Source: Candidatus Kuenenbacteria bacterium RIFCSPHIGHO2_02_FULL_39_13
GTDB taxonomy: Bacteria; Patescibacteriota; Patescibacteriia; UBA2196; GWA2-42-15
Length of the DNA stretch: 39,026 bases
Direction: 5' to 3'
Assembly: GCA_001783595.1 (NCBI GenBank)
Contig: MFMW01000005.1
Location: 18,377-57,402 of the forward strand
This document shows positions 2,113 through 12,062 of this stretch, piece by piece. Under the pieces are notes generated by a model. The model saw only the letters and a list, made by a program, of their open reading frames with translations. It had not been told where the DNA came from and searched no databases. The translations under genes were made by a program, and so were the position numbers. Position 1 is the stretch's first letter. Every line of letters starts with the position of its first letter.

Positions 2113-2170
2113 TTTTTTTATTTAGTTTCCTAACTAAACCTTTATCCGCATCAACTTCCACCATATCATT
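2099..2170 (-). pseudogene. Orphan C-terminal tip of another PEP-utiliser paralog
   Basis: Translates NDMVEVDADKGLVRKLNKKNESG*; 2123-2167 matches 1042-1086 at 38/45 nt. Confidence 0.8.
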
Positions 2171-2179
2171 GCTTCAGCT

Positions 2180-3052
2180 TTATTTTTGTTCAATTTTTTT
2201 CTCCAATCCCTTCCTATCTTCAATTACTTCTTCTAACAATTTACGATCAATACTTATTTTTTCAGTTTTGTCGCCTATGTCGTAAGTTATCTCTATTGTT
2301 TGACTTTTGCCATTGTTTATTATTTCAGTATGAAAACCTTGCGTTTCTTTATAGCCATTTCCTCCCACTGTATTGACATATTTATCCCTTGCCTCTGGCC
2401 CTTTGGTTTTTTCAAGTAGTTTAGCAATAAAACTTTCAGCTGCTCCGTTGTGTGTGGCCAAGTATCTCTCAAGCTGGTTGCCAAATTTTTCATATTTATC
2501 GGTTTGGCTGGCGAGTTTATTGAAATTATCACCCATTAATGAATATTTGTTATAAAGTTCAGCTAAATTGCCAGCATATCTTAAATAACTTGATTCTTTA
2601 GAATCCTTGTTCCTTAATACTGATTTATCGCTTTCCTCTATTAAAAATTTCAACAATCGTCCTTCATTATAAGCTGCTAGCGACTCTGCTGTTGAGTGAA
2701 AATCTAACCTTTCATCAGTATGTATTTTTGTGCCCATTTTTAATTCTTCAGCTATTTTAGTTTCCATCTGTTCTAAACTATCATCGGCCGAAATTTTTTC
2801 CTCATTAGCCAACATCATATGTCCAGCAGTTTCCAGCGTTCTTTTTTGTAAGCTGCCGGTAGCAATAGCCACTTCCGATTGGGGATTAAATTCTTTCCCC
2901 TTATTCGTTGCTTGCTGTCTGCCAAATGGAGTTAACAATCTGTCGCGATTATCCTTTTCTGGGTCATTTTCTTTTTGCCCGTGGCGCCGGCACTCAATAA
3001 TAACTTTGGTAACTTTTGTTTCAAGCTCTTTTGGTGACATTTTTTCTGGCAT
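2180..3052 (-). CDS. Histidine phosphatase superfamily protein
   Basis: N-terminal RHG motif, LTPFGRQQA, S..KRT.ETA, distal ATHNG. Confidence 0.7.
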   Translation of the reverse strand: MPEKMSPKELETKVTKVIIECRRHGQKENDPEKDNRDRLLTPFGRQQATNKGKEFNPQSEVAIATGSLQKRTLETAGHMMLANEEKISADDSLEQMETKIAEELKMGTKIHTDERLDFHSTAESLAAYNEGRLLKFLIEESDKSVLRNKDSKESSYLRYAGNLAELYNKYSLMGDNFNKLASQTDKYEKFGNQLERYLATHNGAAESFIAKLLEKTKGPEARDKYVNTVGGNGYKETQGFHTEIINNGKSQTIEITYDIGDKTEKISIDRKLLEEVIEDRKGLEKKIEQK

Positions 3053-4038: not shown

Positions 4039-4548
4039 CTATAAATTTAATTTAGCTCGCATGGTAAAGTCAACGTCAGCCCGATGCAGCAGATTGGAAA
4101 TGGGCGATTCAATCTCCGAGAGCATTTGAGAATTTTCCAGATTTGCTTTAAGCTGTAAAAAATCGTCTCTTGTTTTCGCCCAGCCGTTCATGGTCATTGT
4201 CCCTTGTGCTCTATCCAAATTTATGCTTTGAATCGTATTGCCCGCTGGCAGTAAAGCCAGAAAATTATTCAATATACCTGACCACTTAACAAAATCTTTT
4301 TGCACTGCGCTAGCTTCACTCATCAGATTGTTAATCTCTCCAATCCCGCCAGGCTGCGTCATTTGTCCATTATTTTCACTGATCATCTTTAGTTCGTGAG
4401 CTATATATTTTTGACTGGCCAGCATCAAGGCAGAAGCAATTAAAAAAATTGCCGTTAATATCAGGGCATTATTAACCATAGCCACATAGCGCGTCTTTTT
4501 TATGATTTGTTTTTTTATTGCTCGCGGCAAAAGATTGAGTTCAATCAT
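4039..4548 (-). CDS. pilN: Type IV pilus assembly protein PilN
   Basis: N-terminal LNLLP motif, TM helix, synteny. Confidence 0.8.
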   Translation of the reverse strand: MIELNLLPRAIKKQIIKKTRYVAMVNNALILTAIFLIASALMLASQKYIAHELKMISENNGQMTQPGGIGEINNLMSEASAVQKDFVKWSGILNNFLALLPAGNTIQSINLDRAQGTMTMNGWAKTRDDFLQLKANLENSQMLSEIESPISNLLHRADVDFTMRAKLNL

Positions 4549-5660
4549 ATCATATTTTTTAAAGCCAGGCCTAGCGCCGTGGTATAAGCATAGAGGTTGC
4601 CAATTTTTCTTGGCAGCTCGCCCGAAATATTTGTGAGCGGGTCAGCAATCAAAATTCTTCTTTTTAATTTTTTTTCCAATATTTCGTCCAGACGATTTAT
4701 ATTTGAGCCGCCGCCGCATAAAATTATTTCTAAATCTTTTGTCTGCCCTGAAAAATGGTCCTGGTAAAAATTTATGGTATTAATGATTTCTTTAACCAAT
4801 TCATCTATGACTTCCATCATTATGTCCCGGATCACTCCTTTACATTTTTTAGCGTCACTGCCGCAAATCAACTTTGCTTTTTCCGCCTTAATGTAAGATA
4901 AATTTTTTCTCTCCATAATGGCCTTGGTAATTTTTTCTCCAGAAATATTGGCAATGCTATTGGCAAACTGTATTATTCCTTTGTCAAGCAGGATAATGCT
5001 TGTTCTGGTCGCGCCCAAGTCTAAAATGATTTTAGCCCCCTCATTTTTGTTATTGTTCGCCAGTTCTTTTGCTTTATGCCATGGTAATTTATTCAGCCAT
5101 CCTTGCTGGCTATTTTCAGTTGCGATAGGCAAAATTGCTCTGGTAATTGCCTGTGCCTCAACTTCAAGCGCCACTACCTCAAGTTGGGCCATATCACACA
5201 GCTTGATATATTCCTCGGCGACAATACGCGGCACGGCCGCCACTAGAAATTTCCTGTATTTATGGTCATTGCCAATTTCCTGCCAGTCAATTTGCACCTC
5301 GCTCATCTCAAGCGGCATATGCCTTGGCAGTTCCTTGCTAATCAAATCTCTGACTTTATCCGTTTGCGTGTCAGCGTGCGCTATGTCAATTACTTTAATA
5401 AAAGTTTTAGTTTCCGGCAAAGAAATCGCCGCATAGCGCGTGGTGAACTTATTAGCTGATTTTTGAATTACTTGCCGAATAAATCCAGCTACTTTTGGTG
5501 CATCTTTAATCACACCCTCCTCAATAATTCCGGGTGGCAGATTGATTGAATTTAATGCTTGAATATAATTTTTCCCCCTTTTTCTTTTAATTTGCGCGGC
5601 TTTTAAGGACAAATCAGAGATATCCAAGCCTAATATTTTATTGGGTGAAGTTAAAGACAT
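4545..5660 (-). CDS. pilM: Type IV pilus assembly protein PilM (actin-like)
   Basis: GLDISD, ILDLGAT.T, ILCGGGS, TALGLAL motifs; ATG at 5660 preferred because the longer start lies in a repeat arm. Confidence 0.92.
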   Translation of the reverse strand: MSLTSPNKILGLDISDLSLKAAQIKRKRGKNYIQALNSINLPPGIIEEGVIKDAPKVAGFIRQVIQKSANKFTTRYAAISLPETKTFIKVIDIAHADTQTDKVRDLISKELPRHMPLEMSEVQIDWQEIGNDHKYRKFLVAAVPRIVAEEYIKLCDMAQLEVVALEVEAQAITRAILPIATENSQQGWLNKLPWHKAKELANNNKNEGAKIILDLGATRTSIILLDKGIIQFANSIANISGEKITKAIMERKNLSYIKAEKAKLICGSDAKKCKGVIRDIMMEVIDELVKEIINTINFYQDHFSGQTKDLEIILCGGGSNINRLDEILEKKLKRRILIADPLTNISGELPRKIGNLYAYTTALGLALKNMI

Positions 5661-6089
5661 GAAACAATAAGCAATAATCAATAAGCAATAAGCAAAGTTA
5701 TAACTTTCTATTTTTTATTTTTGTCATGGACACCCAAAGCATTGCTGAAATCTCATCAATAAGATTAGTTAATCTAAGATATTCATCTTCTGAAAAATAT
5801 TTTAATTCTTTTGCCAGATAAATAATATATTTACATTCTCTCGCAGAACCATAAGATATTTCCCAAAAATTTAATTTTACATTTTCTTTTATTCTCGCAT
5901 AGCCTTCAAGAAAATTTAGCATTACTGACACCGCCGCTCTTCTTAGTTGGGATGTTAAAGCATATAGCTCGTTTTTCGGAAATTGGTTACTATATTGATA
6001 AGTTAATTTTATAAATTCATGAATTTTTACTTTAAGAATATTATTTTCCATTCTTTGTTTATTGCTTATTATTCTTTGTTTATTGTTTC
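5661..6089 (-). mobile_element. IVS-like cassette: four-helix-bundle gene enclosed by 37-nt inverted heptamer arms
   Basis: 5661-5697 versus the reverse complement of 6053-6089 match at 31/37 nt; the arms abut the ORF stop and start. Mobility is inferred. Confidence 0.6.
5698..6051 (-). CDS. Four-helix bundle protein (23S rRNA intervening-sequence protein / S23 family)
   Basis: FPKNELYALTSQLRRAAVSV.LN..EG.AR...F..ISYGS..E motif. Confidence 0.9.
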   Translation of the reverse strand: MENNILKVKIHEFIKLTYQYSNQFPKNELYALTSQLRRAAVSVMLNFLEGYARIKENVKLNFWEISYGSARECKYIIYLAKELKYFSEDEYLRLTNLIDEISAMLWVSMTKIKNRKL

Positions 6090-7537
6090 TCCGTGGTTTC
6101 TTGCCACTGTAAAATCTGGTATTCTCCGGTTGTTGGAAAGCCAGGCGGCGGGTTATAGGTCAAATTTGAATCATAAATCGTTTCTGTGTTTCGGTAACCA
6201 GAGACAGTCTGGCCCCAGCCATTAACCCATGACCAAGTCCAAATCGTATTGGTAATAATTACTCCATACAAGCTGATTTTATTTCTCAAAACATAGTTTC
6301 TGGCATCTGCCGGCACTTGATATGAGCCGCTGGTTGTATAATATTTGCGAAAGACATGTCCTTTTTGCGCCATTAACACCGCGTTTATTTCTAGCTCATC
6401 AGGCGCCGAGTAAAGCGGCACATAAATATTGGACTGCGAAATCAGTCCCAAACTGCTCGTGCCATCCTTGGCCGCATAAACTAAATTCCCGTTAATCACA
6501 ATTTTTGGGTTGCTGCCCGAGTCTGGTAGTTTAGCAGCCACGACCGTTGTCTGTCCGTTGACCGTGCCATCAACCCAAAGATCATCTTCTACAAAAATTA
6601 TACCACAATTTCCCGGGATATTATAATTCCCGGTGTAAGATTCCCGGTCAATGTCATCAGATTCGCGCAGCCATTTAGAACTGTCCCAACCCCAGACAGG
6701 ATTTTTAAGCTTTGACACCCGATACATATCAAAAGTGCCGTCACTTTTAAAATTCAGATGATAGCCCAAGCCGCGCTGTTGAAAATAGCAATCTTCAGTT
6801 GTGGAGCACATTGAATTTTGGGCCAATGTTTTAAGCGTGGCCAAATCAGTTGTCACTTCGTCAAAGTCAATGTTAGACAGGGGAAAATCCCATAATGATT
6901 GTTCCTCGCCAGTTCCCCATACTCCCGGTTTTGTCTGGTAAGAACAGCCGTGTTCCGGCCCGCAAATATATGTTTCTTTAGCTGATGTTGTTTTGCCGTC
7001 ATTATAGCCGTCCATTCTAATGCCGCCGTTAGAATGCAGCGGCCCATGCAATGTTTCCGTGTCGCCAAACCAGACATTGGAATTAGTCAAAAAGGCGAAT
7101 TGCGCCATTGATGGCCGGCCGTATTTTACTTTAACGGTTCTATCCACACCCGGGTCATTATTCATCCAGCCTGTTGACTCAATTATGACTGTGTTGGAGC
7201 ATTCTGAAGGGGGAGTAATGGCTAAAGAGAATTTGCCAATCGTGTTGCCTAAATTATCTTGGTAATCGTGCACGTAAGGTCCGGGCAATCCTGTGCCGTC
7301 CTGAAAATCGTCAGGCGCGTGCGCCAAATGCCAGCGGTAATAATTAACTCCGGCCTCTGCCGTTGCTAAAGCCTTTGCCCAATTTATTTTTTTCAAGCCC
7401 AATTTATGCTGGCTAGCAATCATGCCTGACAGTCCTACTGCTATTACGGTGAACAGCATTGTAAAAACCAGCGCCATAATCAGCATCGCGCCCCTTTTAT
7501 TTTCAAGAATATTAATCCTGTTGCTTATTAATCGCAT
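6080..7537 (-). CDS. PilX-like minor pilin / pilus-associated protein
   Basis: Prepilin-like N-terminus (KRG-AMLIMAL hydrophobic helix), A..AEAG motif, C-terminal YD..L.YNPPPGFP. Confidence 0.75.
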   Translation of the reverse strand: MRLISNRINILENKRGAMLIMALVFTMLFTVIAVGLSGMIASQHKLGLKKINWAKALATAEAGVNYYRWHLAHAPDDFQDGTGLPGPYVHDYQDNLGNTIGKFSLAITPPSECSNTVIIESTGWMNNDPGVDRTVKVKYGRPSMAQFAFLTNSNVWFGDTETLHGPLHSNGGIRMDGYNDGKTTSAKETYICGPEHGCSYQTKPGVWGTGEEQSLWDFPLSNIDFDEVTTDLATLKTLAQNSMCSTTEDCYFQQRGLGYHLNFKSDGTFDMYRVSKLKNPVWGWDSSKWLRESDDIDRESYTGNYNIPGNCGIIFVEDDLWVDGTVNGQTTVVAAKLPDSGSNPKIVINGNLVYAAKDGTSSLGLISQSNIYVPLYSAPDELEINAVLMAQKGHVFRKYYTTSGSYQVPADARNYVLRNKISLYGVIITNTIWTWSWVNGWGQTVSGYRNTETIYDSNLTYNPPPGFPTTGEYQILQWQETTEKQ

Positions 7538-7553
7538 TTTGTATTCTGATTTT

Positions 7554-7607
7554 ATTATAGCACATTTTGCATTTTTTTAACTTTTCCACAGTCATATATG
7601 CTATAAT
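7554..7607. promoter_or_regulatory. Back-to-back extended -10 promoters (pil leftward, hydrogenase rightward)
   Basis: TGCTATAAT on minus at 7554-7562 and on plus at 7599-7607; ATG at 7614 falls at the expected +1. Confidence 0.7.
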
Positions 7608-7613
7608 ATATAC

Positions 7614-8603
7614 ATGAATAAACTTATCAAAAAAATTGAAGCCGCCGGTCTTTTGGGTCGCGGTTGCGGCACTTTCCCAACGGCTAAAAAATGGTTGGCC
7701 GTGTTAAATGCGCCCGGCAGGGAAAAATATGTCATCGTCAACTGTTCCGAGTCAGAGCCAGGCATTTTTAAAGACGAATTTATTTTAGATAATTATCCAG
7801 AGCTTGTTTTGGACGGTCTTAAACTCGCCATGCGAACTCTGAACGCCAGTCAAGGTTTTATTTATCTCAATCCCATATTTAATTCTCGTTTTAGAAACAA
7901 GATCCAAATCTTAATTGGTCATGATAATATTGAAATTTTTTCAGAACCATCCAAATCCTACATCGCTGGCGAAGAATCAACCATTGTCAATCTGATGGAA
8001 GGCAAAAGAGAAGAGCCCCGTTTTAAACCGCCCTTTGTTTTGGAAAAGGGTTTTTTAAATAAACCCACCCTAGTCAACAATTGTGAAACATTTTATGACA
8101 TAGCTCTTATTAATCAAGGCAAATACAAGCGAGAAAGATTTTTCTGCATTGCCGGTGATAACACTCCTAAAAATATTTTCAAATTCCCAGAAACCATAAC
8201 CGTTAAGCAAGCTCTGCTTGAATCCGGCCATTATCCTAATTTTAAATTTTTTATTCAGCTTGGCGGCGCCATGGCTGGCATCTGCCTTGCCGCAGACCAA
8301 TTGGATGATTACGCAATCCAGTATTATGGAGGGCTGATAATTCACGAGTTGGCAAAAGACGAGCGGCAGCTAGTCAATAAATGGCTTGAATTTTACAAAA
8401 AAGAAAGCTGTGGGCAATGCGTTCCCTGCCGCGAAGGCACTTATCGGCTTTATGAAATGTATAATGCAAAAGATTTTAACCACCAGCTATTTGCCGATAT
8501 CATCTTTGCCATGCAAAACTCATCTCTTTGCTCCATGGGTAAAATGGCCGCTACTGCCATTACCAGTTATTTTGAAAATATAAAAAAATGCAAAAAAAGA
8601 TAA
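7614..8603 (+). CDS. NuoF/HydB-like flavin-NADH-binding subunit (short form)
   Basis: GLLGRG..FPT..KW, N..ESEPG.FKD, YIAGEEST, KPPF, ESCGQCVPCREG...LC [4Fe-4S] motif. Confidence 0.88.
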   Translation: MNKLIKKIEAAGLLGRGCGTFPTAKKWLAVLNAPGREKYVIVNCSESEPGIFKDEFILDNYPELVLDGLKLAMRTLNASQGFIYLNPIFNSRFRNKIQILIGHDNIEIFSEPSKSYIAGEESTIVNLMEGKREEPRFKPPFVLEKGFLNKPTLVNNCETFYDIALINQGKYKRERFFCIAGDNTPKNIFKFPETITVKQALLESGHYPNFKFFIQLGGAMAGICLAADQLDDYAIQYYGGLIIHELAKDERQLVNKWLEFYKKESCGQCVPCREGTYRLYEMYNAKDFNHQLFADIIFAMQNSSLCSMGKMAATAITSYFENIKKCKKR

Positions 8604-10405
8604 AAATAACCATCAATCATAAGCAATACTTTAGCCAAGAGAGCCAGACTATTTTAGATGTTTGCCAAGCCAATGGTATTGATATCCCAACCCTGTGCAA
8701 ACATCCTGATTTAGTTATTCAAGGCAAATGCCGGATTTGCTTGGTTGAAGTTGAGGGGCAGGGGATTATTACTGCCTGCACTCAAACTGCGGCAGATGGC
8801 ATGGAAATCAAAACCGACACTTTACTTGTCAAGCGCGCTCGGGCGGTTAATCTGGAAATGATTTATGCCGAGCACATTGAAAAATGCTCTAGCTGCATTC
8901 AGGAACATTCTTGCGCTCTTAAAGATTATGCTAACCAGTATGGCCTTAAAATTACTCGCTACCAAGACCGCAAGGCTAAATTACCAGCCTGGCACTTTGG
9001 CGACTTTATCCAGTTTGATTCCAGTAAATGCATTGACTGCGGAATTTGTAGCGAAGTTTGCACTGATAAACAAACCTGTGATTTTTATCAGACCATTAAT
9101 AAAGGTTATCAAACTCAAACCAAACCAACTGATGATCCTAAAAAAGACTGCACCTACTGCGGCCAATGCGTTGTCCATTGTCCAGTTGGCGCGGTTCAGG
9201 GCGTGCCCCATTGGCAATTTGTGGAAGAGTTGCTAAAAAATAAAAAGACAAGCGCTAAAACTCTTGTGGCCCAAATTGCTCCCTCAATCAGAGTGAGTAT
9301 TGGCGAAGAATATAATTTTGCTTATGGCCAAATTACCAGCGGTCAACTGGCTGCCAGTATGCGCGCCTTAGGCTTTGATGTTGCTTTTGATGTTTCAGCC
9401 GGGGCTGATTTTACCAGTTATGAGGAAGCGCTTGAACTAATTCATTGGCTTGAGGCAAAAAAAGACCGTCCGATGTTCACTGCTTGCTGTCCAGCTTGGG
9501 TGAAATTTGTTGAATTTTATTATCCAGAATTTATCTCTCATCTCACCACCACTCGTTCGCCGCATATTCATTCAGCCATCATAACTAAAACTTATTGGGC
9601 AGAGCTTATGGGAAAAAAGCCGCAAGATATTATTGTTGTTTCCATTATGCCGTGTACGGCTAAAAAGCAGGAAATTAGTCTAACCACCCAGCGCTATCAG
9701 CATCTGCCCATCGTTGATTATGTGGTCACCACGCGCGAATATGTTTATCTGCTCCGCAGGGCAAAAATTGATTTTCCAAAATTGGCATCAAAAGAGCTGG
9801 ATAATCCACTGGGTAATTCCTCCGGCGCCGGCGTAATTTATGGCGCTAGCGGCGGTGTGATGGAATCAGCTCTTCGTTCTGCCGACTATATGCTGCGGGT
9901 AAAAAAAGAAACAGGCAGTTTAAAGCCAATTATCAATGGTGAAAATTATCAACTAATCAAAAATAGATATTCCCGGATTAGCCAAAGCAGAATTGAATTC
10001 ACACAAGTCCGCGGCCAACAAGGGATTAAAGAAGCAGCGGTAAATATTGGCGGCAAAAATCTGCGCGTAGCCATTGTGAGCGGTTTGGGCAGTGCCAGAA
10101 AATTGATTGAAAACATCAAAGCTAAAAAATGCCAGTATGATTATGTGGAAGTGATGGCTTGCCCAGGCGGCTGTATTGGCGGAGGCGGGCAACCACTGCC
10201 AGTCAGCGCTGAAATCAGGGCGAAGCGCGCCGCTGCGCTCTACAATATTGACCAAAACCTAGTCATACGGGTCGCTCATGAAAATAAATTTTTGCTGACT
10301 GTCTATCGTGATTATTTTAAGGGCAGACAAGAACTGATTGAACAATTAATGCATTGCCAGTATAATGTAGCTAACCGGGCAGGTTATAAAAAAATAACTA
10401 ACTAA
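8588..10405 (+). CDS. hydA: [FeFe]-hydrogenase catalytic subunit (group A, with [2Fe-2S], His-ligated [4Fe-4S] and 2x[4Fe-4S] domains)
   Basis: H-cluster motifs FTACCPAW, MPCTAKKQE, EVMACPGGCIGGGGQP; N-terminal Fe-S Cys motifs. Confidence 0.95.
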   Translation: MQKKIKITINHKQYFSQESQTILDVCQANGIDIPTLCKHPDLVIQGKCRICLVEVEGQGIITACTQTAADGMEIKTDTLLVKRARAVNLEMIYAEHIEKCSSCIQEHSCALKDYANQYGLKITRYQDRKAKLPAWHFGDFIQFDSSKCIDCGICSEVCTDKQTCDFYQTINKGYQTQTKPTDDPKKDCTYCGQCVVHCPVGAVQGVPHWQFVEELLKNKKTSAKTLVAQIAPSIRVSIGEEYNFAYGQITSGQLAASMRALGFDVAFDVSAGADFTSYEEALELIHWLEAKKDRPMFTACCPAWVKFVEFYYPEFISHLTTTRSPHIHSAIITKTYWAELMGKKPQDIIVVSIMPCTAKKQEISLTTQRYQHLPIVDYVVTTREYVYLLRRAKIDFPKLASKELDNPLGNSSGAGVIYGASGGVMESALRSADYMLRVKKETGSLKPIINGENYQLIKNRYSRISQSRIEFTQVRGQQGIKEAAVNIGGKNLRVAIVSGLGSARKLIENIKAKKCQYDYVEVMACPGGCIGGGGQPLPVSAEIRAKRAAALYNIDQNLVIRVAHENKFLLTVYRDYFKGRQELIEQLMHCQYNVANRAGYKKITN

Positions 10406-10414
10406 CAAGAAAAT

Positions 10415-10924
10415 ATGCTCAAAGCGATTACTTTACAAAGGGTAAATATCAGCTATGCTGCAAGATTTTTAGTCATCTTGACAATGGCCACTGGCGCACC
10501 GCTTATTGGCATCCACTCTCAATGGCTTACCGGCCCAATTGTCAACATGTCCCTAATTCTTGCTGTTTTTTTAATTGGAATTCGCGGAGCACTGCTGGTT
10601 GGAATTCTGCCATCAACTATTGCCCTAGGCACAGGTTTGTTGCCAGCGATTTTGGCGCCCATGATTCCTTTCATTATTATTTCTAATACTATTTTGATAT
10701 TAGTGGTTGACTGGTTTAAGAATTATAATTATTTTCTCGGTTTATTCTTCGCCGCCGGAGCAAAATATCTTTTTTTATTCATTACCTCAAGCATTGTCAT
10801 CAATTTATTATTAAATCAAGCTCTTGCCCCCACAGTGGCTGCGATGATGAGCTGGCCGCAATTTTTTACAGCTGTAATTGGCGGAGTATTGGCTTGGGGA
10901 ATATTAAAATTTATCAATAAATAA
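10415..10924 (+). CDS. ECF transporter S-component-like membrane protein
   Basis: 169 aa, about 5-6 TM helices, Q..TGPIVN..L and PQ..TA..GG motifs; 9 nt after hydA. Confidence 0.65.
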   Translation: MLKAITLQRVNISYAARFLVILTMATGAPLIGIHSQWLTGPIVNMSLILAVFLIGIRGALLVGILPSTIALGTGLLPAILAPMIPFIIISNTILILVVDWFKNYNYFLGLFFAAGAKYLFLFITSSIVINLLLNQALAPTVAAMMSWPQFFTAVIGGVLAWGILKFINK

Positions 10925-11044: not shown

Positions 11045-11602
11045 ATGTTAAGCAAATCTAAAACCACACGCAAGCTATTAGCTTTCTACTTCACTAACCC
11101 TCAAGCCAAAAAATATGTTAGACAGTTGGCCAGAGTTTTGGGTTTGGATGCCGGGAATCTTTCTAAAGAATTAAAAAAATTTGAAACACAAGGTCTTTTT
11201 TTATCTACTAGAAACGGTGACCAGAAAATTTTTTATCTCAATAAAAATTATCACTTATTTGAAGAATATAAAAATATAATTTTAAAAACTGAAGGTATTG
11301 AAGCTAGCTTAAAAAAATTACTATCTCAATTCAAGAAAATTGAGCAAGCATATATTTTTGGTTCTTTCGCTGATAATAGTCAAAGAACTGATTCAGATAT
11401 TGATTTACTGGTTATTGGCCAAGTTGATTTTGGCAAATTAAATAGGGGAATTAATCAGTTAGAAAAAAAACTCCAGCGCGAAATAAATCAGGTAGTCTAT
11501 AGTTCACAAGAATTTCAAGCACAAAAAAGAAAATCACCGTTTTTAAAAAATATTTTAAGAAATAAAAAGGTAATTTTAATTGGCCAAGATGAAACAAAAT
11601 AA
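11045..11602 (+). CDS. wHTH + minimal nucleotidyltransferase (MNT antitoxin-like)
   Basis: N-terminal HTH; FGS-X10-DID catalytic motif. Confidence 0.85.
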   Translation: MLSKSKTTRKLLAFYFTNPQAKKYVRQLARVLGLDAGNLSKELKKFETQGLFLSTRNGDQKIFYLNKNYHLFEEYKNIILKTEGIEASLKKLLSQFKKIEQAYIFGSFADNSQRTDSDIDLLVIGQVDFGKLNRGINQLEKKLQREINQVVYSSQEFQAQKRKSPFLKNILRNKKVILIGQDETK

Positions 11603-12062
11603 TTTGGACAAAAAAATCAAAGAATTAAAAAGTAAAAATTTAGCTAAAAATTTTCAGGTTAGTTTTTCTGATATCATAAAATATTTAAATAGGGCGAAAA
11701 AAGAGTTAATCATCGCTCATAAAAATATTAAAATTGATAAAAATACATCTTGCGTCTTGATTTATCAGTCAATGCTTAAAGTTGGTCGCTGTCTAATGTT
11801 TTCTTATCATTTGCGGCCGATTGATGGGAGCCAGCATAAAACGACCATTGAATTTTGTGAAGTAATCATCGGAGAAAAATTTAGACAACTAATTGAAAGT
11901 TTTGACGAGCTAAGAAAAAAAAGAAATAAATTTGTTTATGATGTTACCGAAGTTGAAATTTCTGATTCTGAATTGAATTATTATTTTAAAGAAGCTCAAA
12001 AGCTGATTGAATTAGTTGATAAAATTATTAAGCATAAAAATCCTCAAAAAGAACTATTATAA
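11580..12062 (+). CDS. HEPN domain protein (start may be 11589)
   Basis: Helical HEPN-like protein with LRKKRN..VY; overlaps the MNT gene. Confidence 0.75.
   Translation: MAKMKQNNLDKKIKELKSKNLAKNFQVSFSDIIKYLNRAKKELIIAHKNIKIDKNTSCVLIYQSMLKVGRCLMFSYHLRPIDGSQHKTTIEFCEVIIGEKFRQLIESFDELRKKRNKFVYDVTEVEISDSELNYYFKEAQKLIELVDKIIKHKNPQKELL

Follow-up and report, generated by a model that had tools for sequence, protein, structure and literature searches.

How does a bacterium that encodes a seemingly intact [FeFe]-hydrogenase, and none of the maturases HydE, HydF and HydG, come by its H-cluster, and what is the small membrane protein encoded directly behind the enzyme? Both questions are raised by a three-gene operon in a 39,026-nucleotide (nt) stretch of DNA (the window hereafter) from Candidatus Kuenenbacteria bacterium RIFCSPHIGHO2_02_FULL_39_13 (assembly GCA_001783595.1, contig MFMW01000005.1, positions 18,377 to 57,402 of the forward strand), a member of the Patescibacteria whose genome (G000) comprises 717,032 bp in 34 contigs, with a completeness of 88.4% and a contamination of 0.42%. 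The operon lies on the + strand and consists of a NuoF-like (HydB-like) diaphorase subunit (7614..8603, 329 amino acids (aa)), HydA, the catalytic subunit of a group A M3-type [FeFe]-hydrogenase (8588..10405, 605 aa), and a membrane protein of the HymD/Hyd6TM family (10415..10924, 169 aa; its gene is called the 6TM gene below). The hydA start overlaps the nuoF-like gene by 16 nt and the 6TM gene begins 9 nt past the hydA stop, so that the coordinates of the open reading frames (ORFs) match exactly the three tightly coupled genes described in a first-pass annotation made from the sequence alone. The first two genes were identified by their ORFs and Pfam/NCBIfam matches, the third by its ORF, an AlphaFold2 model, its fold match and its linkage to hydA, and these identities are near certain. 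As a whole, we are slightly inclined to read the operon as a reduced NADH-linked hydrogenase module with a HymD-type, EcfT-independent, ligand-binding accessory protein, in a lineage where the loss of the maturases is very probably real.

The catalytic subunit has the domains Fer2_4, NADH-G_4Fe-4S_3, two Fer4, Fe_hyd_lg_C (1.6e-84) and Fe_hyd_SSU, i.e., a [2Fe-2S] cluster, a His-ligated [4Fe-4S] cluster, two further [4Fe-4S] clusters, the H-domain and a small-subunit-like tail. It passes the cut-offs of TIGR02512 (413.6 bits vs. 405.95) and PF02906 (283.8 vs. 22.1) and stays below that of the NADH-dependent 'group A6' model NF040763 (601.4 bits vs. 765). All three H-cluster motifs that had been read from the DNA (FTACCPAW, MPCTAKKQE and EVMACPGGCIGGGGQP) were recovered in the translation, at HydA residues 297, 354 and 521, for comparison with the consensus (L1 TSCCP, L2 MPCxxKxxE, L3 ExMxCxxGCxxGGGQP). 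Conservation was analyzed in 62 full-length proteins, namely the window HydA and 61 of the 74 HydAs encoded next to a 6TM gene (13 cut at the edge of their locus were dropped), all of the latter chosen by their tblastn position only and not by motif. The Cys at the relay position of L1, the Cys and Lys of L2, as well as the Met and both Cys of L3 were present in 62/62 sequences, the second Cys of L1 in 60/62 (both exceptions labelled Dehalococcoidia), and the Cys and His residues of the accessory clusters were invariant or at least 90% conserved (alignment A2). The [2Fe]-binding site is therefore under purifying selection in genomes that lack maturases. Two metagenome-assembled genomes (MAGs) labelled Dehalococcoidia (loci L062 and L082) have TSCSPGW instead of TSCCP in motif L1 of a HydA that is ~35% identical to the window protein and is followed by the same 6TM gene; HydG is absent from both, while HydE and HydF were checked only in the genome of L082.

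The absence of maturases was followed from the window to the genome, its relatives and the phylum. As the first-pass annotation had noted, there is no hydE, hydF, hydG or NuoE gene among the Pfam/NCBIfam matches of the window, and searches with hidden Markov models (HMMs) for maturase genes elsewhere in the genome found none either, within the limit of 88% completeness: HydE (TIGR03956) and HydG (TIGR03955) gave 0 matches in the whole window genome, and HydF (TIGR03918) matched only IF-2 and LepA there, as identified from the ORF translations. The seven radical-SAM ORFs of this genome encode MiaB, NrdG, a SPASM protein, AmmeMemoRadiSam, RlmN, Elp3 and a B12-binding radical-SAM protein. In a set of 61 genomes (G000 and 60 relatives, 23 of these in the same order), HydA was found in 32, including 24/24 genomes of the order, and HydG, HydE and HydF were each above cut-off in 0/61; the maturase-less HydA-bearing members include two single-contig genomes (G034 and G054). 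In an even sample of 401 genomes across the phylum, HydA occurred in 46 and HydG in eight, with both only in G144. HydG is hence absent from 45 of the 46 HydA-bearing genomes, seven of which consist of a single contig (G139, G287, G303, G311, G326, G349, and G381). Maturase loss is lineage-wide and the rule among HydA-bearing Patescibacteria.

It is most unlikely that the maturases are present and were missed owing to incompleteness, loss during binning or extreme divergence. The window genome is indeed incomplete and fragmented, and a few Patescibacteria do carry hydG, hydE and hydF. Moreover, a MAG of the same order (G022, 86% complete) contains a genuine C-terminal hydF fragment (L030, G022:C94, 3-1052 (+), 215 bits, with CxH...HCxxC) on a 2,308-bp contig whose GC content matches the rest of the MAG, in which neither HydE nor HydG turned up. 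Against this stand the lack of above-cut-off HydG and HydE in all 61 genomes of the relatives set, single-contig genomes included, the same lack of HydG in nearly all HydA-bearing genomes of the phylum sample, and the assignment of every radical-SAM ORF of the window genome to another family. Since Patescibacterial HydG scores 545–613 bits where it is present, divergence is not hiding it. Sub-cut-off 'HydG' matches in G015, G047 and G007 were considered as hidden maturases and rejected, as they are better described as ThiH-like and stand in unrelated contexts. The one in G015 (L033, G015:C15, 3254-5095 (-)) is a radical-SAM protein of 613 aa that resembles ThiH and HydG, with sub-cut-off scores of 206 bits for ThiH and 152 bits for HydG; it has an unassigned C-terminal extension of ~250 aa and lies next to GH3-like and phosphoenolpyruvate (PEP)-utiliser-like genes.

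An enzyme without a known maturation route might also have given up its original chemistry, in which case HydA would not evolve H2 in vivo, would lack the [2Fe] subcluster and would have another redox role. This is very unlikely. Besides the missing maturation route, it could draw on some short Patescibacterial HydA-like proteins that deviate at the [2Fe] contacts (ASPCP, GPC..KK.E, D.L.C..GC), but in the long HydAs none of the Lys, Met and Cys residues dedicated exclusively to the [2Fe] subsite varies (62/62). Furthermore, according to a 2024 study of archaea (PMC11216029), maturase-less archaeal HydAs bind supplied cofactor and make H2 after such artificial maturation. In the same source, 130 archaeal genomes encode HydA and five of them have full maturase sets, and 'an alternative pathway' is called likely (PMC11216029).

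The flavoprotein partner is equally reduced in its outline. The NuoF-like ORF matches PF01512 (1.7e-30) and PF10589 (5.5e-16), i.e., the flavin mononucleotide (FMN)/NADH domain and the N3-type [4Fe-4S] cluster, with no further domains, and scores 160 bits against TIGR01959, far below its cut-off. Among 52 sequences of its family (314–416 aa), the four N3 Cys residues and K26-W27 are conserved in 52/52 and the GEE motif in 51/52. The additional clusters typical of HydB in trimeric HydABC (an N-terminal [2Fe-2S] and a C-terminal 2x[4Fe-4S]) are lacking from the 329-aa window protein as judged by Pfam, and NuoE/HydC (PF01257) gave 0 matches in the whole 88%-complete genome. Because NuoE/HydC and the extra HydB clusters are missing, bifurcation is unlikely and the hydrogenase is probably non-bifurcating. 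Electrons from NADH would enter at the NuoF-like flavoprotein and pass through its N3 cluster and the NuoG-like N-terminal clusters of HydA to the H-cluster, where H2 would be released. The proposal of a reduced fermenter that disposes of NADH as H2 thus stays plausible, given the 717-kb genome, the retained cofactor motifs of NuoF and the place of the operon at the head of a lower-glycolysis gene cluster; the host association suggested together with it is not supported, the DNA having been found in groundwater and soil metagenomes.

What, then, is the third protein? It has no Pfam/NCBIfam match at E ≤ 0.01. Its AlphaFold2 model (predicted local distance difference test 82.5, predicted TM-score 0.76) consists of six transmembrane helices (TM1 to TM6) and a short extra helix (residues 135–145) in the TM5-TM6 loop. 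The top 11 Foldseek matches are S-components of energy-coupling factor (ECF) transporters (TM-score 0.65–0.67), and so are all top 18 matches of VIA-align, headed by TmRibU (5kbw_B; Z 17.2, root-mean-square deviation 2.9 Å over 154/169 residues) and SaRibU (Z 16.5), with ThiT, PanT and BioY at Z 11–14 and the best unrelated fold at Z 8.9. The S-component-like character proposed earlier is thereby borne out at the level of the fold, and the window protein itself does not reach the Pfam family threshold; 21/23 family members match PF12822 weakly (E ≤ 1, best 1.3e-6). A profile search of the family alignment (A1, 23 sequences) against the sequences of the PDB gave 0 matches. In A1, 34 columns are invariant, many of them Pro, Gly or polar residues, and Cys is nowhere conserved. 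The invariant polar and Pro positions (Q36, T39, N44, S67, P77, P85, N91, K117, P148, Q149, and T152) map to the L1, L3 and L5 loops and to the outer-to-middle parts of the helices, given a topology with both termini inside that we infer from the positive-inside rule, while the cytoplasmic TM4-TM5 loop (with insertions of up to ~30 residues) and both termini are variable. Conservation on the outer side together with a variable cytoplasmic side is the pattern of a binding pocket and not of a docking face. A ligand-binding or uptake role is nevertheless close to an even bet, falling if anything just short of it.

The gene family itself is already labelled, as HymD or 'iron hydrogenase' in databases and, for similar proteins, as Hyd6TM in the 2024 paper. 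There are 271 close homologues, mostly from Patescibacteria, several of which are named 'iron hydrogenase' at NCBI and a few 'ECF transporter S component' or 'riboflavin transporter'. An exhaustive profile search yielded 1,129 representatives (50% identity), of which 559 reached E ≤ 1e-10, and the nearest clusters are labelled '[Fe] hydrogenase subunit HymD family' in the ESM Atlas, one of these clusters being mostly Bacillota. The hymD label also appears next to hymC in a MAG gene table. As regards sequence homology, our HymD/Hyd6TM assignment is tentative and combines these database and annotator labels with a by-eye match of motifs to the sequences printed in Table S2 of the archaeal study.

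The clearest clue to function is the genomic company of the gene. Relatives turned up in 373 of the species-representative genomes scanned, and 80 loci were compared. In 74 of these hydA stands beside the 6TM gene, 73 times upstream on the same strand and once in the order 6TM-nuoF-hydA; of the six loci without an adjacent hydA, two break off at a contig end within 700 nt. In 58/80 loci hydA is preceded by a NuoF-like gene, and at two loci (L058 and L068), which carry hydA and the 6TM gene, more than 2.2 kb of upstream sequence holds no NuoF-like gene. Within the relatives set the family profile detected the gene in 15/61 genomes, all 15 with HydA, and in the phylum sample it was present in 26 of the 46 genomes with HydA vs. 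0 of the 355 without it, the 26 carriers spanning at least 14 families. The linkage to hydA on which the earlier ideas about this protein depended is therefore firm (74/80 loci, and HydA in 26/26 carriers). It is also seen in five MAGs labelled Dehalococcoidia (1.0–1.7 Mb) in which a HydA ~35% identical to that of the window is followed by the same 6TM gene and HydE, HydF and HydG are absent. A prediction of a complex between HydA and the 6TM protein gave ipSAE values of 0.00 and 0.00, which were counted neither way.

The pairing is not limited to long HydAs. About 22 of the 46 HydA-bearing genomes of the phylum sample encode enzymes of 280–310 aa that comprise only the H-domain and have no NuoF-like gene alongside, and in 11 of these genomes such an enzyme has a diverged 6TM gene (34–69 bits against the A1 profile) right next to it, mostly in divergent transcription. 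Judged from this gene order, the partner of the membrane protein is the catalytic H-domain and not the flavoprotein. The H-domain-only ORFs belong mostly to one family (f65) and are similar in size to 'ultraminimal' archaeal enzymes. One of them (L126, G132:C1, 1266-2117 (-)) deviates at the [2Fe]-contacting positions (ASPCP, GPCITKKNE, and DILTCEGGCIGGPGM); with a diverged 6TM gene at 2163-2693 (+) it forms a divergently transcribed pair. Similar pairs occur in G160, G184, G250, G303, G377, G390, G404, G430, G468, and G120.

This pairing bears directly on the suggestion that the protein imports flavin for its partner subunit. A RibU-like importer of riboflavin or FMN would supply the FMN that the NuoF-like subunit needs, two riboflavin S-components, TmRibU and SaRibU, lead the structural matches (Z 16.5–17.2, above the 11–14 of ThiT, PanT and BioY), and some sources do name members 'riboflavin transporter'. 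However, the family also accompanies ~290-aa H-domain-only HydAs with no adjacent NuoF-like gene, as well as hydA at the two loci without one (L058 and L068), and in Iainarchaeota Hyd6TM lies beside a flavoprotein-less A1 hydA (Table S2, PMC11216029). RibF was not found in the window genome, and a general importer should not be restricted to genomes with HydA, as this family is. The flavin proposal is accordingly disfavoured, and we consider it very improbable.

A purely structural role comes closer, though it is still unlikely. The membrane protein would then hold the soluble hydrogenase at the cytoplasmic membrane as an anchor or structural subunit, and would neither bind a ligand nor transport one. 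Its gene is tightly coupled to hydA by the 9-nt gap and takes a subunit-like position in the operon, it has a history of annotation as a hydrogenase 'subunit', and in Heliobacterium the expression of hymD changes together with that of the genes of the nuoEFG-type [FeFe]-hydrogenase (40-fold vs. 43–51-fold; PMC2887804). On the other hand, the parts that face the cytoplasm are short and the least conserved (the TM4-TM5 loop and the termini), the invariant polar residues sit in the outer half, the lineages with short HydAs mostly transcribe the two genes divergently, and half of the HydA-bearing genomes do without the 6TM gene.

The boldest proposal, put forward in the first-pass annotation, was that the S-component-like protein scavenges an H-cluster precursor in place of the maturases, i.e., that it imports externally made [2Fe]H precursor or another building block of the H-cluster and so replaces HydEFG. 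The distribution of the gene contradicts such a replacement: 17/32 genomes of the relatives set and 20/46 of the phylum sample have HydA, no maturases and no 6TM gene (G006 and G022 have not even a remnant), and in two genomes (G076 and G112) it coexists with hydG, hydE and hydF, where it stands beside maturation genes. The 6TM gene is not a stand-in for the maturases, because many maturase-less genomes with HydA have no copy of it. The HymD label, moreover, comes from Bacillota, which usually have maturases, and the invariant residues include no Cys or other obvious Fe ligand. Nor is such a precursor, oxygen-labile as it is, known to form a natural pool outside cells, which also weighs against import. 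Import of [2Fe] precursor is therefore not specifically supported and very unlikely, yet several points speak for it: the fold is that of high-affinity micronutrient-capture proteins, the linkage of the protein is with the catalytic H-domain and not with the flavoprotein, the genomes that carry it are nearly all maturase-less (HydG in 0/26 and 2/55, and none of HydE, HydF and HydG in the five MAGs labelled Dehalococcoidia), the H-cluster site is under selection, and apo-HydA can be activated by supplied synthetic cofactor (PMC11216029). We would give only a slim chance to the broader idea of an H-cluster route that is independent of maturases and enters the cell through HymD/Hyd6TM, a solitary S-component that would capture an iron-carbonyl-cyanide or [2Fe] precursor, or another committed building block, released by neighbouring or host cells. 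If it were true, such capture would enable Patescibacteria, small Dehalococcoidia and DPANN archaea to retain active [FeFe]-hydrogenases despite the loss of hydEFG, maturase-bearing cells would use HymD as a salvage path, and genomes with HydA and no HymD would use a non-homologous substitute.

The two genomes with both systems place the 6TM gene in a wider context. HydG was examined in 55 of the 80 locus genomes and found in the two just named, both of which also have hydE and hydF. In G076 (L052) the order is hydA, hydG (557 bits), hydE (319), hydF (311), a TM1266-like gene and the 6TM gene, and in G112, where hydG-hydE-hydF lie on another contig, the 6TM gene is preceded by a TM1266-like one. 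A TM1266-like gene stands between hydA and the 6TM gene in 27/80 loci, for example at L046 3991-4257, L057 4034-4300, L052 4197-4469, and L101 4029-4307. It encodes an ACT/NikR-C-like 'iron-only hydrogenase system regulator' of ~88 aa and occupies this position in maturase-less genomes as well; the one copy scanned matches PF21699 (TM1266-like, of the TIGR03959 kind) with 43 bits vs. a threshold of 27, and an HMM built from nine locus copies gave 0 matches in the window genome. Taken together, these gene orders suggest a plausible reduction series from hydA-hydGEF-TM1266-hymD through hydA-TM1266-hymD and hydA-hymD to hydA alone, in which the nuoF-hydA-6TM form of the window is a late stage and we infer the direction to be one of gene loss.

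The reading we favour, a reduced NADH-linked hydrogenase module with a ligand-binding HymD-type protein, would bring these observations together as follows. The 6TM gene would belong to a hydrogenase-system gene set (hydA, hydGEF, the TM1266-like gene, and hymD) that was whittled down in Patescibacteria, most lineages of which, this one included, would have lost hydGEF, and the window genome also the TM1266-like gene. With hydGEF lost, the cells would have to acquire the H-cluster independently of HydEFG, as has been proposed for archaea. The HymD/Hyd6TM protein would be a conserved accessory of the catalytic domain of HydA: a solitary S-component-type protein that may bind, and perhaps slowly import, a small molecule in an outward-open pocket, the ligand being needed for making or keeping the holo-hydrogenase. 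EcfT (PF02361, CbiQ family) was found neither in the window genome nor in any other member of the relatives set (0/61), so the function of a canonical ECF importer is impossible and solitary action is most likely.

Several points weigh against this reading. The shared S-component fold does not by itself demonstrate transport, and the window protein reaches only 14.8 bits against PF12822, below the threshold of 30.7. The 6TM gene is missing from 17/32 and 20/46 of the HydA-bearing genomes, and as so many manage without it, it may be dispensable or replaced. The genomes that were counted are kin and hence not independent, the window genome is only 88% complete, and the hydF fragment on a small contig of G022 indicates that maturase genes may sometimes escape binning. 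As for the electron donor, a NuoF without NuoE is an unusual arrangement, NADH-driven formation of H2 is feasible only at very low H2, and the window genome has a gene similar to pyruvate:ferredoxin oxidoreductase, so that ferredoxin could be the donor instead of NADH.

Around the operon, an extended -10-like element (TGcTATAAT, 7599..7607, + strand), read directly from the sequence, ends 6 nt upstream of the nuoF-like ATG at 7614. Being so close to the ATG, with no room for a Shine-Dalgarno sequence, it makes a leaderless transcript possible; a consensus promoter scan listed no site on the + strand at 7599-7607. Downstream of the 6TM gene follow a low-GC nucleotidyltransferase pair, PGK, enolase, a PEP-utiliser protein and iPGM, and synteny with PGK, enolase and iPGM is shared by the window and the relatives G006 and G022. 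The pair (11045-12062 (+)) is made up of a nucleotidyltransferase (PF18765/PF01909) that has a MarR-like N-terminus and of a 160-aa ORF that overlaps it, and has a GC content of 27.7% vs. 39–43% in the neighbouring genes. Since PGK directly follows the 6TM gene in L034, the pair looks like an insertion, possibly a toxin-antitoxin-like one. In G006 and G022 the NuoF-HydA-PGK junction is clean. The gap between hydA and PGK in G006 (L032, G006:C8, 5680-5928 (+)) contains a terminator-like hairpin and the gene for an 82-aa DUF5654 membrane protein (75 bits), and a DUF5654 gene also lies two genes from a DPANN hydA (Table S2, PMC11216029). Upstream of the operon, on the opposite strand (4545-7537 (-)), there are type IV pilus genes (PilM and a PilX-N-like protein of 485 aa), in a region that also encodes a protein of the 23S-rRNA-intervening-sequence family (bAvd-like; 5698-6051 (-)). 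At several other loci (L066 1425-2201, L099 1688-2518, L103 1577-2335, and L096 1804-2643), a membrane protein of 250–280 aa with weak likeness to YciC/UPF0259 is encoded between the nuoF-like gene and hydA.

The phylum sample also held the converse case, seven genomes with HydG and no HydA, the latter being found in 0/5 of those tested at a lenient threshold. HydG (560–613 bits) and HydE occur together at L119 (G266:C1, 5156-13239), L124 (G491:C7), L122 (G362:C55), L120 (G180:C4), and L123 (G402:C70). In three of the six annotated contexts (G266, G362, and G491) hydE-hydG lie near or within genes for subunits of a group-3b-like [NiFe]-hydrogenase, with hydF not adjacent; in G266 they are placed between the beta/gamma and the delta/alpha subunit genes. 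In G180 and G402 they stand beside unassigned ORFs, and in G422 the scan covered hydG alone. HypD was found in 0/7 of these genomes. This gene arrangement hints that an enzyme of the [NiFe] type might receive Fe-CO/CN from HydG and HydE in these genomes. The accessible part of a paper on 3b hydrogenases of the Candidate Phyla Radiation (CPR) makes no mention of HydG or HydE near [NiFe] genes (PMC10811913).

The question of how an H-cluster is acquired without HydEFG was raised for protists and, in 2024, for archaea, and the same puzzle is the rule in Patescibacteria, as the 45 of 46 HydA-bearing genomes without HydG attest. The gene-order series places HymD in the hydrogenase-system gene set, and its micronutrient-capture fold together with a conserved outward polar pocket makes ligand screening of HymD/Hyd6TM a direct experiment. 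The minimal NuoF-HydA pair is, in addition, a compact candidate for an NADH-linked hydrogenase in biotechnology. It is already known that operons of this type are common in Patescibacteria, that the membrane family has a label and that maturase-less HydA is a recognised puzzle. As far as our literature searches show, what is new is the S-component (RibU-like) fold of HymD/Hyd6TM, the restriction of HymD to HydA-bearing genomes across the phylum sample and its pairing with H-domain-only enzymes, as well as the hydA-hydGEF-TM1266-hymD series and the near-universal lack of HydG in Patescibacterial genomes with HydA. In these searches, outside of which lay PDF and bioRxiv supplements, no paper on maturase-less [FeFe]-hydrogenases in Patescibacteria/CPR was found.

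Among known systems, the hymABCD iron-only hydrogenase cluster of Eubacterium/Peptoclostridium acidaminophilum is said to be the source of the founding description of HymD, reportedly by Graentzdoerffer et al. in 2003 (Arch Microbiol 179:116). HymD of that cluster is reportedly likewise a small hydrophobic protein of ~170 aa encoded directly after genes for a NuoF-like protein and HydA; in contrast to hymABCD, the window operon has no HymA/NuoE-like gene and the window genome no maturases. With the S-components of ECF transporters (RibU, ThiT, PanT, BioY, and FolT) the window protein shares the six-helix fold, a similar length, both termini inside and outer polar residues in L1, L3 and L5, but it is a sub-threshold PF12822 protein from a lineage without EcfT in 61 genomes and its family is found at hydA loci instead of in vitamin contexts. 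As in HydABC (group A3), an M3-type HydA with NuoG-like N-terminal clusters stands beside a NuoF-like subunit with FMN and [4Fe-4S], whereas HydC/NuoE is missing from the window genome, HydB is reduced to a 329-aa NuoF core and the NF040763 score stays below cut-off. The archaeal Hyd6TM likewise has six predicted helices, adjoins hydA (A1 and A3) and occurs mostly in genomes without HydEFG; it measures 185–186 aa, and the two sequences in print, compared by eye only, agree with A1 at the PF..N, mid-helix K and Q-F-x-T-A-x-G-G motif positions (PMC11216029). Its hosts are DPANN archaea, and it figures there in legends and Table S2 only, with no domain assignment ('NA' in CDD/HMM; PMC11216029), while the window protein is bacterial. 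Finally, DPANN and Asgard archaea, Giardia and Entamoeba also have a HydA whose H-cluster site is intact and genomes, closed ones included, that lack HydE, HydF and HydG (PMC11216029), and in contrast to these known maturase-less hosts, the case described here is that of a bacterium, a member of the Patescibacteria.

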